DNA of 64,000 bases from Escherichia phage SUSP2, in the sequence record KT454806. One strand, given 5' to 3'. Below the pieces are notes generated by a model. That model worked only from the letters and a program-made list of their open reading frames with translations, ran no database searches and was not told the DNA's origin. The position numbers were made by a program, and so were the translations under genes. Position 1 is the stretch's first letter. Every line of letters starts with the position of its first letter. Of the stretch, positions 20,536 to 58,545 are shown piece by piece.

Positions 20536-22884
20536 ATGGCAGAATTTAAATTGAGTGAACTAAACTCGATTAACGAAATTCGTTCTGATGACCTATTGCA
20601 TGTCAGAGTTAAGAAAAGAACTGAGATGTTAGGTGATGAAGACCGTAGAATGACTTATGCAGATTTTCTTGCATCATTTAGACTGGAAAGATTTCTGCAA
20701 TTAGTTGGTGGAACCATGACAGGTAATTTAGGGATTGTGAAGCTTACCTATGGAGGAAAAGATTTACTTGACCCAACAGGTAGCTCTGAAATTGTCTTCG
20801 GTGATACTGCAAAAACTTTCAAGCTTAATGCAAATGGTCTTAAACTGACTATTGCAGATGCTTCAAGAAGTGCAACTGTTTACCACACTCTGAACAAACC
20901 ATCCCCTAATGAACTTGGGATGAGAACTAATGATGAGAACGATGCAAGATTTGCTATCAAGGGAACTCAAAATACCTTCACAGCAAGTCAGATTTTCCAG
21001 ACAGATAATGCTGGTTTGACTCTGAAGAACACTGCTGCGGCTGCATTGTATTATGAAGGTCGTGATACAGCAAACGTTGTAAGATTCACAATTGGTAACC
21101 TGAGTTCTGGTTCTGACGTTACTATTGCAAACACCAGACAGAATACTAACATTGTTCTTGGCACTGGTTCTGTAGGTATTAACAAGCAGCTTCAAGTAAC
21201 TGGACAGGTTGTTCCTTCAGACTTTGCAAACTTTGATGCAAGATTCTATACTCGTGATGCAGCAGACCAAAGATTTGTTCAGTTGGCAGCAGCTAACACG
21301 ATTACTGGAAACAACACCTTCAGAGGGACTACAACGTTACTTGGTGACGGTGCAAGATTAACTCTGAAGAACTTGACAAGTGGTAAAGCACTTTACATTG
21401 AAGGTCAGAACACAGATGCTTCTATGAAGTGGGCTGTAGGTAACTATGCAGATGGTAGCAACTCAGTTGTATTGACAAACATCTCAAATGATACCTATGT
21501 ATTGCTTGATAACATGGTCAGAGTTAACAAGAGTCTTGCAATCACTGGACAGGTTCAACCATCAGACTGGACTAACATTGACTCCCGTTATGTTCTTATC
21601 GGTTCATACGCAAATCTTGCTAAGAAGAATGAAGCTAACACATTCACCCTACAGCAGAATATTCAGTCTGATGGTGAAGCACTTAGAGTCTATAGTAAGG
21701 CTCAGAACAATGCTTCCTACATTGTTGGTAAGAACACTGATAACACTAATAAGTGGTATATTGGTTGTGGTACAAACGGTTCTGGTATTGCATCTTTCCA
21801 TAACTACTTAACTGGTGCAAGAATTGATTTGTCTGATGAAGTTCTTCTGTCAAAATCTTTACAGATTACTGGACAGGTAAAACCTTCTGATTGGGGTAAC
21901 TTGGATGCAAGATACTTCACACAGACAGCAGCTAACTCTAGATTTATGCTTGCTGGCTCATCAGGCAATGCCACTGAACAGAATGGTGGAGATGGCGTAG
22001 CGTGGAATGCCAAGACAGGTTTGTACAATGTTACATTTTCAACTGGTGGCTCAACACAACTGGTCTACCATATGTATCAGGGTGCATCATCAACACCGTC
22101 TGCTCAGTTGAAATTCAACTATAAAAATGGTGGGATGTGGTACAGGTCGGCTAGGGATAGCTATGGTTTTGAAGCTGCTTGGTCTAAAGTGTATACAGAA
22201 GCACAGAAACCAACACCTTCTGAAATCGGTGCATATACTAAAGCAGAAACTGACCAGAAAATTGCTGCTGCTGTTACTAATTCCACTGACCTTAAGAAAG
22301 TCTATCCAGTTGGGATTGTAACATGGTTTGCTACTAACCAGAATCCTAACACAACTCTTGCAGGTATGACTTGGACGTATCTGAATGAGGGTGTAGGTAG
22401 AACAGTTAGAATCGGTGCAGCGAATGGTTCAGATGTGAAGTCAGTTGGTGGTGCAGACACTGTGACATTATCTGTAGGGCATATCCCTTCGCACACTCAC
22501 AGCTTCTCCGCTACAACGTCAAGCTTTGACTATGGTACGAAGACCTCTAACACTACTGGTGCTCACACTCACTCTGTAAGTGGTTCTGCTGCTTCTGCTG
22601 GTAACCACAACCACTCTATCTCGTGGATTGGTCAGAACTCTACACACTACTCTGGTGGTGGTGGTGGTAAGGTTGGTGTAGGGCCGGGGTACACTGATGC
22701 AGGTGGTGCTCACACCCACACAATCTCTGGTACTGCTGCTTCTGCTGGTAACCATGCTCACACAGTTGGTATTGGTGCTCACACCCACACAGTTAGTGGT
22801 AACACTGGTGGTACAGGTTCTGGTTCAGCATTCAGTGTTGTGAACTTGTTTATCAGATTGATGGCATGGGTTAGAACGGCGTAA
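20536..22884 (+). CDS. Tail fiber protein (long paralog)
   Basis: 782-aa ORF; three internal repeats with ITGQV-PSD-W/F-N-D-R-Y/F core; same HxH C-terminal domain ending WVRTA. Confidence 0.65.
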   Translation: MAEFKLSELNSINEIRSDDLLHVRVKKRTEMLGDEDRRMTYADFLASFRLERFLQLVGGTMTGNLGIVKLTYGGKDLLDPTGSSEIVFGDTAKTFKLNANGLKLTIADASRSATVYHTLNKPSPNELGMRTNDENDARFAIKGTQNTFTASQIFQTDNAGLTLKNTAAAALYYEGRDTANVVRFTIGNLSSGSDVTIANTRQNTNIVLGTGSVGINKQLQVTGQVVPSDFANFDARFYTRDAADQRFVQLAAANTITGNNTFRGTTTLLGDGARLTLKNLTSGKALYIEGQNTDASMKWAVGNYADGSNSVVLTNISNDTYVLLDNMVRVNKSLAITGQVQPSDWTNIDSRYVLIGSYANLAKKNEANTFTLQQNIQSDGEALRVYSKAQNNASYIVGKNTDNTNKWYIGCGTNGSGIASFHNYLTGARIDLSDEVLLSKSLQITGQVKPSDWGNLDARYFTQTAANSRFMLAGSSGNATEQNGGDGVAWNAKTGLYNVTFSTGGSTQLVYHMYQGASSTPSAQLKFNYKNGGMWYRSARDSYGFEAAWSKVYTEAQKPTPSEIGAYTKAETDQKIAAAVTNSTDLKKVYPVGIVTWFATNQNPNTTLAGMTWTYLNEGVGRTVRIGAANGSDVKSVGGADTVTLSVGHIPSHTHSFSATTSSFDYGTKTSNTTGAHTHSVSGSAASAGNHNHSISWIGQNSTHYSGGGGGKVGVGPGYTDAGGAHTHTISGTAASAGNHAHTVGIGAHTHTVSGNTGGTGSGSAFSVVNLFIRLMAWVRTA

Positions 22885-22892
22885 TCAATTTG

Positions 22893-22921
22893 TTGACTAA
22901 ATGTTAAGATGGTGTTAATAT
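22893..22921 (+). promoter_or_regulatory. Sigma70-like promoter (TTGACT-N17-TAATAT) overlapped by a 9-bp inverted repeat
   Basis: -35 at 22893-22898, -10 at 22916-22921; inverted repeat AAGATGGTG (22906-22914) / CACCATCTT (22937-22945). Confidence 0.45.
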
Positions 22922-22963
22922 TTTCATAGGTATTCTCACCATCTTGGCTGATGAGGTGACATA

Positions 22964-23161
22964 ATGCCGACTATCCTAGCAATCCTCTTAAAAAACTTGG
23001 GTAGCTTCCTCTGGAAACTTCTACTTTCCCTTCTGAGTGAATACATGATTGAGAAAGCCTTCTTCAGACTTGCAAGATACCTTGCGAGTAAGACAGATAC
23101 GCCTATTGATGATGAATTTGTTAATAACTTGGAAAAAGCCTTTAAAGGGGAGAAAGAATGA
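22964..23161 (+). CDS. Small membrane protein (holin-like or lysis/superinfection regulator candidate)
   Basis: 65 aa, N-terminal hydrophobic helix, charged C-terminus; GAGGTGA RBS. Confidence 0.4.
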   Translation: MPTILAILLKNLGSFLWKLLLSLLSEYMIEKAFFRLARYLASKTDTPIDDEFVNNLEKAFKGEKE

Positions 23162-23532
23162 AGTGGTTAGAGGATGCTTTCAAAAATAACATTGGTGCAA
23201 TTGTTGTGGGTATCTTCAGTGTAATTGGTATGTACACTACAATGCAGGTGTCTAGTGGGAAGCAGGAAGTTTCCGTTTCGACAAAGTTACAACAGCTAGA
23301 TAGTTACAACAAAAGCAACTATTCAGCTATTCGTGATTTACAGTCTGACATGAAACTCCTGCAATTAGGTATGGAGAACCAGAAGGTTCAGCTAGAGAAC
23401 GTAAAGGGTGAAAACGCCAAGTTGACTAAAACCCTTGATAAATTCTCTGACAGTGTTAACAACCTAGCACAGTCTGTATCAGCTTTGCAAGCAATCACTG
23501 AACAGAATACTCAAAATGCTAAGAAAAAATAA
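23158..23532 (+). CDS. Membrane-anchored coiled-coil protein
   Basis: 124 aa, N-terminal TM segment then coiled-coil; start overlaps upstream stop. Confidence 0.4.
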   Translation: MKWLEDAFKNNIGAIVVGIFSVIGMYTTMQVSSGKQEVSVSTKLQQLDSYNKSNYSAIRDLQSDMKLLQLGMENQKVQLENVKGENAKLTKTLDKFSDSVNNLAQSVSALQAITEQNTQNAKKK

Positions 23533-23538
23533 GTTTAA

Positions 23539-23565
23539 GGCTCCCGTAAAAAGGAGCCTTTTTTG
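23539..23565. terminator. Terminator hairpin between convergent transcription units
   Basis: GGCTCC-CGTAAAAA-GGAGCC followed by TTTTTT on + strand; sits between + gene ending 23532 and - gene ending 23572. Confidence 0.6.
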
Positions 23566-23571
23566 TATCTA

Positions 23572-24468
23572 TCAACCTACTGACAAGGGAGCTTCAATCT
23601 TCCCTGCATGTCGATAGTCTTTGAAACCACCGATAAAGTTACTTGCAGTCATATGTTTGAGGTCATCCAGACATTTTAAATCTTGAACAATCTCAAACTT
23701 CGGTGCAGGAAACTCTTCATTCCCTAAAAGCTGGAATACCTGATTCATATGGTTCTGATAAATCTGAGTATCACCAAAAGTACCAATCAGATAACGAGGT
23801 GTATATCCAGTCATCTTACAAAGCACTTCCAAGATAAAACCATAAGACGCAATGTTAAATGGTAAACCTAAGAAGCTGTCTACAGAACGTTGATACCATT
23901 TTAAATCCACTTCACCAGTATTCGAGATGTAAATCTGGAAAAGTACATGACAAGGTGGTAAAGCCATTGCATTAGCTGAGATATCAGCAGCATTCCAAGC
24001 ATTAACCAGCATGTAACGGTCTGTAGGAGACTTTTTCATCTTGGTAATCAGATTGTCTAGCTGGTCAACTGTAACGCCACCATGACCTTCTGAGGCTCTC
24101 CACTGGACACCATAGATACGTCCACCTGCATCATCCAACCAATCTTGCTCACTTGCATACGTTGTTTTAAGCCAACGTTCAAAGTCATTTGTCCAGATTG
24201 TCCAACGTTCCCCATCGTTTTCTCCCCAAGTACGATAGCGAAGATGACCAAGTTTATTCTCACCATTCAAGAACCATAAAGCTTCACCAATAACTTGTCT
24301 GGTCAGAACCTGTTTAGAGGTTAGTAAAGGAAAACCAGTACGCATATCAAAACGAAACTCTGGTGGTGAGAACGTTGAAATTACAGAACCAGTTCGGGTT
24401 TTACGCTGCTCACCAACTGTTAAAACATGGTTCAGAATATTTTTGTAACTTACATCTGCCTGTGACAT
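23572..24468 (-). CDS. thyA: Thymidylate synthase (ThyA type)
   Basis: Catalytic LPPCH motif, YQRSVD and PFNIASY motifs. Confidence 0.9.
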   Translation of the reverse strand: MSQADVSYKNILNHVLTVGEQRKTRTGSVISTFSPPEFRFDMRTGFPLLTSKQVLTRQVIGEALWFLNGENKLGHLRYRTWGENDGERWTIWTNDFERWLKTTYASEQDWLDDAGGRIYGVQWRASEGHGGVTVDQLDNLITKMKKSPTDRYMLVNAWNAADISANAMALPPCHVLFQIYISNTGEVDLKWYQRSVDSFLGLPFNIASYGFILEVLCKMTGYTPRYLIGTFGDTQIYQNHMNQVFQLLGNEEFPAPKFEIVQDLKCLDDLKHMTASNFIGGFKDYRHAGKIEAPLSVG

Positions 24469-26642: not shown

Positions 26643-26972
26643 TTAATCTGACAGCCTTAAGTTAAAGTTAACACCAAGTTTTTCACAAGCTTTCAACATG
26701 TATTCAAGGGTAATCTTTCCAGTACCGTTGACAATGTTGGAAACACGACTTTGAGAGATATCACAAATCTTTGCGACTTGTGCCTGAGAAAGTTTTCTTT
26801 TCTCAATTTCTTTTTCAAAACGGAATGCAACGAACTCTCTCATTTCGTCTACATCCATTGGACAGATATAACTTGCCATCTCATACTCTCTATCAGCTTC
26901 CCACTTATCTTGTGGAGCATAAGGGTCAAAGACTTCATTCATCTTTCTTCCTCCGTTTTCTGGAAGTGTCAA
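26643..26972 (-). CDS. XRE-family helix-turn-helix transcriptional regulator
   Basis: C-terminal HTH LSQAQVAKICDISQSRVSNIVNG; real start probably an internal Met. Confidence 0.6.
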   Translation of the reverse strand: MTLPENGGRKMNEVFDPYAPQDKWEADREYEMASYICPMDVDEMREFVAFRFEKEIEKRKLSQAQVAKICDISQSRVSNIVNGTGKITLEYMLKACEKLGVNFNLRLSD

Positions 26973-27559: not shown

Positions 27560-27588
27560 AAAATAAGCTATAACACCTGACTTGTCAA
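27560..27588 (-). promoter_or_regulatory. Sigma70-like promoter (TTGACA-N17-TATTTT) inside a 13-bp inverted repeat
   Basis: -35 TTGACA = reverse complement of 27583-27588, -10 TATTTT = reverse complement of 27560-27565; inverted repeat arms AAATAAGCTATAA at 27561-27573 and 27595-27607. Confidence 0.55.
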
Positions 27589-27643
27589 CAGATTTTATAG
27601 CTTATTTGGCAGATTTTTTATAAGGCTACTGCCATCCTTCCAT

Positions 27644-27697
27644 ACCTCACCGCACCCTACTACACCCCCACCTTACCGAACCGCGCCATACCAAACA
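27644..27697 (+). repeat. Phased pentamer array A1, about 11 ACCNN units
   Basis: ACC trinucleotide recurs every 5 nt (27644, 27649, 27654, ...), one 6-nt step; C-rich, G-poor on + strand. Confidence 0.8.
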
Positions 27698-27734
27698 TCA
27701 CTTAAAAACCCTTTTCAAAGACTCTTAAGTGATG
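27696..27734 (+). other. Conserved hairpin motif H1 (CATCACTTAA-19 nt-TTAAGTGATG)
   Basis: Perfect 10-bp inverted repeat with 19-nt loop; near-identical copy at 29210-29248. Confidence 0.7.
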
Positions 27735-27765
27735 TAATCGAATTTTAATGTAGCTCCGATTAACT

Positions 27766-27816
27766 ACCCATACCTCACCTCACCTAACCTCACATTACCA
27801 AACCGCATACTACCTC
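27766..27816 (+). repeat. Phased pentamer array A2, about 10 ACCNN units
   Basis: ACC at 5-nt phase from 27772; preceded by conserved leader TAGCTCCGATTAACTACCC. Confidence 0.75.
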
Positions 27817-27844
27817 ATTAAAAGACCCTGTTTAAAGGCCTTTT

Positions 27845-27868
27845 AAAAAGGAGCCTCCGAAGAGGCTA
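27845..27868 (-). terminator. Rho-independent terminator of the two-gene operon
   Basis: On - strand: AGCCTC-TTCG-GAGGCT hairpin followed by CCTTTTT. Confidence 0.65.
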
Positions 27869-27878
27869 CCTAGTCAAC

Positions 27879-28319
27879 TTAGAAAGGTTTTCTACGTTGC
27901 TTGTTAATGTTAGCTTTCATAGCGGCTAAATGGTTTTGCTGTTCAATCAATCGTGAACGTTCTTGATGACTAAGTGCCATAGTGTTCACATTCTCAATTG
28001 CTTGAGTCGCTTGCTTTAAGGCGCGACCAATCTTACCAGACATTTTACGTTTTGCAATAGTTGCTTGATGTTTTGGTTCAACTACACGATAACCCACACC
28101 CATTGAAGCAACCAGATAAATCTTTTCTTCTTTAAGAAGCTTTTCGATAAACTTCTCAAGTCGGTTTAATCGTGTCAGAGAATAAGCCTTCATCTCATCT
28201 TCGTACTTAACAATATCACCCTGATAAGTTGGCTTCACAATACCTAAGAAGGTATCCATTTCAGAGTGTGATACAGTATCACCGTAACTAAACTTTGCTG
28301 CTAATGCTTTTGTATTCAT
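27879..28319 (-). CDS. Hypothetical protein, basic C-terminus (second gene of repeat-flanked operon)
   Basis: 146-aa ORF, stop 1 nt after upstream gene start region; no recognisable motif. Confidence 0.5.
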   Translation of the reverse strand: MNTKALAAKFSYGDTVSHSEMDTFLGIVKPTYQGDIVKYEDEMKAYSLTRLNRLEKFIEKLLKEEKIYLVASMGVGYRVVEPKHQATIAKRKMSGKIGRALKQATQAIENVNTMALSHQERSRLIEQQNHLAAMKANINKQRRKPF

Positions 28320-29021: not shown

Positions 29022-29081
29022 ACCTTACCAAACCCTACCAGACCGTACCATGCCCAACCCTACTACACCAGACCTTACCTC
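29022..29081 (+). repeat. Phased pentamer array B1, 12 ACCNN units
   Basis: ACC (two degenerate: GCC, ACT) at 29022+5k for k=0..11; preceded by leader GGCTACTACCATCCACCC. Confidence 0.8.
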
Positions 29082-29118
29082 ATTAAAAGACCCTCTTAAA
29101 GACCTTTTAAAAAGGTAA

Positions 29119-29142
29119 GTCTCATTTTCATGTAGCTGAGAC
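29119..29142 (-). other. Internal hairpin in operon leader (possible attenuator)
   Basis: On - strand: GTCTCA-12 nt-TGAGAC followed 5 nt later by TTTTT. Confidence 0.35.
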
Positions 29143-29153
29143 TAACTACCCAT

Positions 29154-29210
29154 ACCAAACCTTACAATACCTAGCCTTACCACACCGAACCAAACCACAC
29201 CCAACCGAAC
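29154..29210 (+). repeat. Phased pentamer array B2, 12 ACCNN units
   Basis: ACC-like trinucleotide at 29154+5k; preceded by leader TGTAGCTGAGACTAACTACCC. Confidence 0.8.
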
Positions 29211-29248
29211 ATCACTTAAAAACCCTTTTCAAAGACCCTTAAGTGATG
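29210..29248 (+). other. Conserved hairpin motif H1, second copy
   Basis: CATCACTTAA-19 nt-TTAAGTGATG; differs from 27696-27734 copy at one loop position. Confidence 0.7.
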
Positions 29249-29278
29249 CTGGTGAGTACCCGTTGGTTTATGCTGCTC

Positions 29279-29306
29279 AGTATACTCACCAAATTTTCTA
29301 TGTCAA
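29279..29306 (-). promoter_or_regulatory. Sigma70-like promoter (TTGACA-N16-TATACT) driving the repeat-containing leader and two-gene operon
   Basis: -35 TTGACA = reverse complement of 29301-29306, -10 TATACT = reverse complement of 29279-29284. Confidence 0.55.
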
Positions 29307-29491
29307 CAATTTTCTAATAAAGTTTTATAAAGATTTTGCTTAACGACCCGCCTCACATGCCTATGCTCTTTCTTAATAAAGAGTGACCTCTTCTTGACAG
29401 AGCGCCTATTCTTGTAGGTATTACTAGGATACTTATCATGAACCGGACAACAACTACCCGGATTTGTAAACTTGATAATCTCTCTTTTCAC
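29303..29491 (-). CDS. Small highly basic protein
   Basis: 62-aa Lys/Arg-rich ORF; start overlaps ligase stop (coupling). Confidence 0.4.
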   Translation of the reverse strand: MKREIIKFTNPGSCCPVHDKYPSNTYKNRRSVKKRSLFIKKEHRHVRRVVKQNLYKTLLENC

Positions 29492-39599: not shown

Positions 39600-39628
39600 T
39601 TGACAAGGGAGTATGAAGTCTGTAAGAT
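39600..39628 (+). promoter_or_regulatory. Sigma70-like promoter (TTGACA-N17-TAAGAT) for SSB gene
   Basis: -35 at 39600-39605, -10 at 39623-39628. Confidence 0.5.
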
Positions 39629-39678
39629 TGTACTCCTTCAAGTTTGAAAGAAATAATTTTGAGAAAGAGGATTTAAGA

Positions 39679-58516: not shown

Positions 58517-58545
58517 TTGACAGGGGCTGCAAAGCCCCTTAGAAT
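58517..58545 (+). promoter_or_regulatory. Sigma70-like promoter (TTGACA-N17-TAGAAT) with GNRA hairpin in spacer
   Basis: -35 at 58517-58522, -10 at 58540-58545; spacer is GGGGCT-GCAA-AGCCCC. Confidence 0.5.

Follow-up and report, generated by a model that had tools for sequence, protein, structure and literature searches.

The question raised by this locus is what an inverted repeat that overlaps a promoter does for the genes lying downstream of it. In a 64,000-nucleotide (nt) stretch of Escherichia phage SUSP2 (record KT454806; the whole of this stretch is called the window here), a promoter-like site and an inverted repeat share the gap of 80 nt between a tail-fibre gene and two small open reading frames (ORFs), ORF65 and ORF124. 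A first-pass annotation of the sequence had taken the arrangement for tightly regulated expression of a small membrane-protein operon, possibly in lysis control or superinfection exclusion. Comparison with related phages indicates that the promoter is very probably real, and that the repeat in which it is nested most likely functions as an RNA hairpin rather than as a repressor site. No non-coding element next to the only candidate lysis-membrane genes of the late operon is more strongly conserved than this site, which belongs to phages of the Felix O1 type, which are widely used in typing, biocontrol and therapy of Salmonella and E. coli. Its parts are as follows.

22893–22898, plus strand: −35 hexamer TTGACT, matching the consensus at 5/6 positions (sequence, promoter scan).
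22913–22921, plus strand: extended −10, consisting of TG (22913–14), T and TAATAT (22916–21; 4/6 matches, with A−11 and T−7 present).
22928, plus strand: predicted transcription start, unmapped, placed 7 nt past the −10 by promoter geometry.
22903–22948, plus strand: hairpin-forming inverted repeat of 46 nt with 19 base pairs (bp), from RNA folding and pair counts in relatives.
22953–22959, plus strand: Shine-Dalgarno sequence GAGGTGA of ORF65, 4 nt past the base of the hairpin and complementary to UCACC in its 3′ arm.

The promoter TTGACT-N17-TAATAT had been placed correctly to the base at 22893–22921 in the first-pass annotation; it is additionally TG-extended, has a spacer of 17 nt between the −35 and the −10, and is listed by the promoter scan with TG and 9/12 matches. 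The 9-bp inverted repeat reported at 22906–22945 as spanning the −10 and the predicted start was right in every coordinate as well, with AAGATGGTG at 22906–22914, CACCATCTT at 22937–22945 and 22 nt between the arms. The repeat is larger than reported, the inverted-repeat search giving 15-nt arms with 13/15 positions complementary, and the two 9-nt arms are the Watson-Crick core of a hairpin with an outer stem of 12 bp, 2 of them G·U (22903–14/22937–48), a 2 × 2 internal loop, an inner stem of 7 bp (22917–23/22928–34) and a 4-nt loop (22924–27). The −35 lies shortly before the 5′ arm, the −10 hexamer is inside the 5′ half of this hairpin, and the inner 3′ arm opens with the base predicted as the transcription start. 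Folded as RNA, 22903–22948 reaches −21.7 kcal/mol (z = −6.9), and none of 200 shuffled sequences was as stable. Neither the promoter nor the 9-bp repeat exceeds chance in the single sequence: 13 promoter-like sites were counted between 20 and 26 kb, where 13.3 are expected, and the window holds 13 perfect 9-bp inverted repeats with spacers of 3–40 nt, compared with 11.4 ± 3.8 in dinucleotide shuffles. A leader peptide was also considered, the ATG at 22909 opening an ORF of 6 codons, and was rejected because indels in the loop shift its frame in relatives.

The evidence that carries our conclusions comes from the homologous gap in other phages, which we gathered from 29 IMG/VR contigs, 18 metagenome contigs, several GenBank records and Logan/ENA assemblies; the column counts refer to 24 sequences, 22 of which are unique in the gap. 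Variable columns number 0/18 in the two 9-nt arms, 6/7 in the 7 nt separating the −35 from the left arm, and 45/50 and 35/50 at third codon positions of the flanking genes. Indels are confined to three places: upstream of the −35, within the loop, and in the stretch that leads from the right arm to the Shine-Dalgarno sequence. Across the 22 unique relatives, 99.2% of the cells in the stem are paired and 12 pairs are invariant, and the changes include two U·G to C-G and one compensatory A-U to G-C. The compensatory change lies in the inner stem, where 5′ AATA has become AGTA together with 3′ TATT to TACT; it was seen in the lineage L053/L064 in two independent samples, and it alters the −10 yet leaves its match count equal. 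Sequences of the Suspvirus, Felixounavirus and Mooglevirus types have identical arms separated by 22, 23 or 24 nt, and the sequence of the hairpin loop varies freely. Read in this comparative way, the column pattern is the footprint of a working promoter plus a selected repeat. The first-pass claim of a functional promoter-overlapping repeat is thus borne out as to a selected element, and it is not borne out as to tight regulation through an implied operator. The lineage L053/L064 and another divergent one, L059, are uncultured and Ounavirinae-like and are known from metagenomes only; for L053/L064, sampled via L053, the phage collection contains no match exceeding about 80% nucleotide identity.

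The promoter has its own record of conservation. Among about 50 relatives, in which neither 9-nt arm ever varies, the −35 stands out as conserved amid variable bases and is mostly TTGACT, the variants being TTGACC in two sequences of one lineage and TTAACT in one sequence variant found in two contigs. The 17-nt spacing to the −10 is invariant in all relatives, and TAATAT is changed to TAGTAT only jointly with the compensating change in the 3′ arm. Because the −35 and the spacing are conserved relative to variable flanks, we consider 22893–22921 to be very probably a genuine promoter for the two-gene cassette, of the extended −10 sigma-70 type used by the host RNA polymerase. In L059, which has 75% identity in ORF65, a promoter TTGACA-N17-TAAGAT is retained although the hairpin is lost, the 5′ arm having given up its complementarity so that no large hairpin forms. 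The L059 sequence (ENA ERZ28599557 scaffold_93, 1030–1190) also has a different tail-fibre end, a non-coding spacer of 165 nt and a rearranged leader. Kolesnikvirus carries TTGACA-N14-TGc-TACCTT at the equivalent place. Phage Felix O1 lacks an RNA polymerase, and no factor is known by which it would change the specificity of the host enzyme; its promoters have been proposed as P11, P41, P45, P102 and P117, this site not being among them (PMC3185647). Reverse transcription-PCR (RT-PCR) in Felix O1 gave maxima at 60 min for ORF77 (tail fibre), 25 min for ORF78 and 5 min for ORF79 (PMC3185647); by analogy, these maxima across the site, taken from a noisy table, would match the expectation for an internal promoter.

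Does the repeat then act on DNA or in RNA? As a DNA operator, its arms (about −22 to +18) would be bound by a dimeric protein of the phage or the host that shuts the promoter off. A candidate is encoded by the phage, 3.7 kb away.

26643–26942, minus strand: XRE/Cro-type helix-turn-helix protein of 99 amino acids (aa) in the early operon (Pfam HTH_3, E 6e-12).

The geometry is in part what an operator would need, since the −10 and the start both fall within the dyad symmetry, and the centres of the arms are 31 bp apart, near three helical turns. Arm sequences that stay invariant beside variable bases are likewise what sequence-specific recognition would give. Homologues of the helix-turn-helix protein occur in 257 phage records, a set that matches the set of locus-carrying records in its size and in its host names, and none was found in Erwinia or Hafnia phages, which are without the repeat; this co-occurrence, however, is a single clade-level event common to many genes. 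Half-sites of 9 nt set 22 nt apart are unusual for XRE-type proteins, and the change in spacing from 22 to 24 nt corresponds to a rotation of about 70 degrees, which a rigid dimer would not tolerate. The variable distance between the arms therefore favours an RNA loop over a rigid dimer on DNA. Neither arm recurs in the 90.7-kb genome of phiSUSP1, and therefore a repressor would have a single site; no copy of a 15-nt or 21-nt arm, with up to 3 mismatches allowed, stands at another intergenic site of that genome, and no further site was found there, the surroundings of the regulator's own operon included. The compensatory change speaks against an operator too, falling as it does in the inner stem, which contains the −10. 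Moreover, U·G pairs extend the stem at both ends, which is possible solely in plus-strand RNA, and the few changes at these extension positions are mostly U to C and give better pairing. On account of the spacing of 22–24 nt, the uniqueness of the repeat in phiSUSP1, the compensatory change and the G·U pairs, the operator and the tight transcriptional control implied at first pass are unsupported, and we regard a DNA operator as unlikely. A repeated operator motif was looked for in the window and rejected: AAGATGGTG with at most one mismatch is over-represented (46 versus 19), but its occurrences are spread over the window without clustering at intergenic sites, in a manner consistent with coding composition.

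The symmetry could also serve at the level of DNA without any bound protein, as a cruciform whose extrusion hides or exposes the −10, so that the promoter would follow DNA topology or the state of replication. Cruciform-regulated promoters have been described in E. coli, and the centre of the repeat is A+T-rich and contains the −10. In DNA, however, G·U pairs do not count and the stem is just 9 + 4 bp with mismatches, closed by a loop of at least 10 nt whose length varies among relatives, and such a supercoil sensor is highly improbable here.

If the promoter is nested in an RNA hairpin, two kinds of transcript would arise. Polymerase arriving from upstream would make RNA with both arms, in which the hairpin folds, and RNA started at the nested promoter would have the 3′ arm only, so that the same genes would be carried by two mRNA forms with differing leaders. 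Folding of the hairpin is expected in read-through RNA, since the tail-fibre gene and the repeat have no terminator between them and the hairpin has no U-run. The terminator scan called no terminator-like site between the tail-fibre gene and position 23537 (20.5 to 23.5 kb), and made no call for the hairpin itself, which does not look like an intrinsic terminator, having an A/U-rich stem followed by UGAUGAGG with no U-run. An upstream transcript folding into an ordinary RNA hairpin was what the first-pass annotation had named as speaking against its own reading, and with no terminator intervening this probably applies in part.

What the two leaders might do is suggested by the sequence around the ribosome site. 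The UCACC-AUC of the 3′ arm matches the Shine-Dalgarno region GAU-GA-GGUGA by complementarity, as GGUAUU does AAUGCC at the ORF65 start codon, and the GGTGA of the Shine-Dalgarno sequence is invariant in relatives. In RNA folding the short leader brings the 3′ arm onto the region of the Shine-Dalgarno sequence and start codon, and only weak extension pairs of the long-leader hairpin reach the Shine-Dalgarno sequence. We took ribosome-site accessibility, with caution, from a local model only. In this model, opening the ribosome site of the window costs 11.2 kcal/mol in the short leader and 5.6 kcal/mol in the long one; the means in relatives are 13.1 and 9.4 kcal/mol, and the short leader is the costlier in 27/27 unique relatives. 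In the scheme that these values suggest, the repeat would act in RNA: on read-through transcripts the hairpin would serve as a cap or insulator for the tail-fibre message and would keep the anti-Shine-Dalgarno-like 3′ arm (UCACC...) off the ribosome site, and in promoter-started RNA the free 3′ arm would base-pair with both the start codon and the Shine-Dalgarno sequence (GGUGA), so that translation is damped. This likely action of the repeat is the weakest step of the scheme, and the direction and size of any translational effect are inferred only.

Several observations weigh against this reading. The 27 relatives are almost identical at the leader, so that 27/27 comes near to a single observation. 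The helix that sequesters the Shine-Dalgarno sequence in the short leader is unexceptional (z −0.74), its opening energy is equalled by 2–22% of shuffled leaders, and it shows no covariation among relatives, one of its pairs being broken in L053. When 150 nt of upstream coding RNA are included, the difference in accessibility between long and short leader becomes inconsistent. The 9-bp core is without any drift, even of the transitions that would create G·U pairs, and such total invariance of the arms exceeds the needs of base pairing and hints at sequence-specific recognition. A block of the 3′ arm, CCATCTTGGC, is under a constraint of its own, as we judge from the comparison, because it survives in L059 without a complementary 5′ arm. 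As to transcription, the Felix O1 RT-PCR table gives different maxima for two overlapping genes (PMC3185647), and the literature yielded no transcription-start or RNA-seq study of any Ounavirinae phage. With these points taken into account, a sigma-70 promoter nested in an RNA-acting hairpin, giving two mRNA forms with leader-specific translation, is still the best explanation overall, though we hold it tentatively and would put it somewhat short of an even chance. In a more elaborate form, the Shine-Dalgarno-like 5′ arm, the anti-Shine-Dalgarno-like 3′ arm and the true Shine-Dalgarno sequence would make up a three-part RNA switch, with the lysis-related cassette translatable mainly from late read-through RNA and the nested-promoter RNA largely silent; the two propositions taken jointly are decidedly doubtful. 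If true, the switch would be the T4 gene e device in reverse, setting lysis timing in Felix O1-like phages.

The hairpin may instead act in processing or stability only, as a site for ribonuclease III (RNase III) or a barrier to 3′ exonucleases with no leader-specific effect on translation. It would then uncouple the abundant tail-fibre message from a cassette expressed at a low level, and its overlap with the promoter would be due to the compactness of the 80-nt gap. This explanation is equally simple as the translational step, and the evidence for a translational switch is weak. A stem of 12 + 7 bp with a 2 × 2 internal loop amounts to about two helical turns, and a two-turn stem with an internal loop is the size of the classical RNase III substrates of T7 and lambda; the comparison is one of size. 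The hairpin starts 18 nt after the tail-fibre stop codon, and Kolesnikvirus and Hafnia phage relatives have a canonical terminator hairpin at the equivalent place. Because these distant relatives have a true terminator at that position, the comparison points to separation of the tail-fibre message from the genes after it as the more ancient function. Promoter-like sites in intergenic regions of phiSUSP1 also often overlap hairpins (mean z −1.97, versus −0.28 for intragenic sites; p = 3e-9). A pure barrier or processing stem should allow compensatory drift, yet 18/18 core positions are invariant; the U-tract of the terminators in distant relatives is missing from the hairpin of the window; and Rfam gave no match at gathering thresholds in the whole window and only noise, at E values up to 10, near the site. 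We consider processing or protection alone to be possible, if on the unlikely side.

The position of the site is readily placed in the genome. Region 22400–24000 of the window shares 98.7% identity with Salmonella phage PC79-13 and 96.6% with Escherichia phage phiSUSP1, and about 250 Felix O1-like genomes match it at 80–90%, which by sequence makes the window a Felix O1-like phage (Ounavirinae, Suspvirus). The gene order, colinear in phiSUSP1, runs from the late structural operon on the plus strand through the 80-nt gap to the two small ORFs and a bidirectional terminator, beyond which lies a minus-strand operon for thymidylate synthase and dihydrofolate reductase (td/frd).

20536–22884, plus strand: tail-fibre gene, 782 aa, the last large gene of the late structural operon (ORF; phrog_4277; Pfam gp37_trimer/gp37_C).
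22964–23161, plus strand: ORF65, 65 aa, with an N-terminal hydrophobic segment (ORF; phrog_402; Pfam PF26925).
23158–23532, plus strand: ORF124, 124 aa, with one N-terminal transmembrane segment and a coiled-coil-like C-terminal part (phrog_4038).
23537–23560, both strands: bidirectional intrinsic terminator between the plus-strand cassette and the minus-strand td/frd operon (terminator scan).

The strong terminator that the first-pass annotation saw closing the small-gene operon is therefore present, and its counterpart in Felix O1 is annotated t79/t80. It exists in two mirror orientations among relatives, in a comparison that also covers L035:2881 and L032:2826. The form GGCTCCCGTAAAAAGGAGCC is found in the window, in L006 (1882) and in L059 (1783); its exact reverse complement, GGCTCCTTTTTACGGGAGCC, is the form of Felix O1 and Kolesnikvirus and, with one additional loop T, of the Mooglevirus-type L008 (1882). 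From these sequences, the td-side terminator hairpin seems to have been flipped in place.

The two small membrane proteins proposed downstream of the promoter are there too, of 65 and 124 aa with one N-terminal hydrophobic segment each (Kyte-Doolittle maxima of 1.57 and 1.62 for ORF65 and ORF124 in a 19-residue window), ORF124 overlapping ORF65 by 4 nt. All homologues of ORF65 have a precomputed match to Pfam PF26925 (Phage_PM2_Gpl). BLASTP of ORF65 against gp l of phage PM2 gave no match, and alignment of a profile of 7 ORF65 homologues with PM2 gp l by hhalign gave a probability of 94.3% with E 1e-7 over 42 columns at 33% identity. By these profile data ORF65 is a homologue of gp l, which we take to be the PM2 protein P18, an equation that reportedly goes back to Krupovic et al. 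in 2007. The PHROG 402 family, to which ORF65 belongs, is thus detectably homologous to a protein of PM2 (Corticoviridae), and a small lysis-associated protein family is shared by tailed phages and a tailless membrane-containing phage. In PM2, P17 and P18 are lysis factors, and outer-membrane disruption requires P18 (PMC9502842). ORF124 had no significant match in Pfam, NCBIfam, PDB or PADLOC, coiled-coil noise apart, and none to PM2 gp k. Its relatives bear the label 'putative holin', which stems from five candidates picked by transmembrane criteria (PMC3185647). A holin assignment for ORF124 is unsupported: it has no match to a holin family in Pfam, PHROGs or NCBIfam, and its single transmembrane segment is the sole support for the label. 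The endolysin lies about 56 kb off in phiSUSP1, where Rz/Rz1-like spanins are also annotated elsewhere. Of the functions suggested at first pass, a link to lysis is partly supported by the homology of ORF65 to gp l, which makes such a connection plausible for that gene; for superinfection exclusion no evidence was found.

Promoters and repeats also meet at other sites of these genomes. At 29250–29306 (minus strand), a second promoter-like site of the same architecture, TTGACA-N16-TATACT, is overlapped by a 9-bp inverted repeat, TGGTGAGTA/TACTCACCA, with a 24-nt spacer, lying across the −10 and the predicted start; the site folds at −15.0 kcal/mol (z −3.7) and is 96% identical in Felix O1. A common operator linking it to our site through a CTCACCA/TGGTGAG core was rejected, the 7-mer being found 20 times in the window. 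At 27561–27607 (minus strand), a 13-bp perfect inverted repeat, AAATAAGCTATAA ... TTATAGCTTATTT, surrounds the −35 of a promoter-like site, TTGACA-N17-TATTTT, and has a T-run after it. Situated upstream of the sub-operon with the helix-turn-helix regulator gene and conserved in Felix O1, the repeat may serve as a combined terminator and promoter or as an operator for the regulator itself. Two large non-coding gaps of the early operon on the minus strand, 27600–27900 and 29080–29320, are paralogous, with blastn segments of 76–94% identity; each has an CATCACTTAA ... TTAAGTGATG hairpin and G/T-rich runs (GGTGAGGTGAGGTATGG...) and no Rfam match, and they may encode small RNAs or represent repeated regulatory modules. 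Past the end of the window, at 66.6–71.2 kb of phiSUSP1 (L056), seven early intergenic cassettes, one before each small early gene, have the form TTTACA-TGGGGTTTA-(variable loop with a −10-like hexamer)-TAAGCCCCA-GATAAAGAG, with conserved stems and varying loops. In the gap between rIIA and rIIB, at 58517–58545, a terminator-like hairpin, GGGGCTGCAAAGCCCC, stands in the spacer of a promoter-like site TTGACA ... TAGAAT; in phiSUSP1 and Felix O1 this hairpin keeps its stem but differs in its loop. At 39600–39640, the repeat in TTGACA-AAGGGAGTA ... TAAGAT-tg-TACTCCTT runs across the −10 and has no counterpart in Felix O1. A genome-wide rule that promoters sit in hairpins, for which the intergenic excess in phiSUSP1 was considered, was rejected as confounded by terminators; at least one such repeat, downstream of rIIB, is not conserved in Felix O1.

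With this site a known design gains a new example, as yet uncharacterised. In phage T4, the promoters of e (lysozyme), soc, 49 and I-TevI are nested in leader hairpins (PMC3014915). As in these genes, the promoter here lies in the DNA for the 5′ strand of the hairpin, just upstream of the ribosome site, with its −10 (22916–21) within the 5′ half (22903–23) and the start predicted at 22928. As with T4 e, upstream transcripts would hold the whole hairpin and those of the nested promoter would be without the 5′ arm, and the gene concerned is probably lysis-related, ORF65 being homologous to a PM2 lysis factor. The T4 hairpin includes the Shine-Dalgarno sequence and/or the AUG, so that the long early RNA is silent and the short late RNA is translated (PMC3014915). 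In contrast to T4 e, the stem described here ends at 22948, before the Shine-Dalgarno sequence (22953–59) and the AUG (22964), and the predicted polarity is opposite, the short leader being the more closed by calculation. The nested promoter is also of the sigma-70 type, whereas that of T4 is a gp55 late promoter (TATAAATA). If there are indeed two functionally different mRNAs, the principle of T4 gene e would extend to a sigma-70 promoter in an unrelated phage subfamily; if not, the site would be an ordinary promoter beside an ordinary structured leader. With ordinary extended −10 sigma-70 promoters, those proposed for Felix O1 included, the promoter has host-type hexamers in common, but unlike the Felix O1 set it is embedded in a conserved hairpin. 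The lambda sib and T7 intercistronic RNase III sites are hairpins of about 20 bp with an internal loop, which form in only one class of transcript and can determine what becomes of neighbouring cistrons. In lambda sib, the 3′ end of the transcript determines whether the hairpin is complete, whereas here it would be the 5′ end. At the same position, the Kolesnikvirus and Hafnia phages within the Ounavirinae share with the window a stable hairpin between the tail-fibre gene and the homologues of ORF65 and ORF124, at most 30 nt upstream of the Shine-Dalgarno sequence. Their hairpins are G+C-rich and followed by a T-run, whereas that of the window is longer, A/U-rich and without a T-run, and has the promoter inside it.

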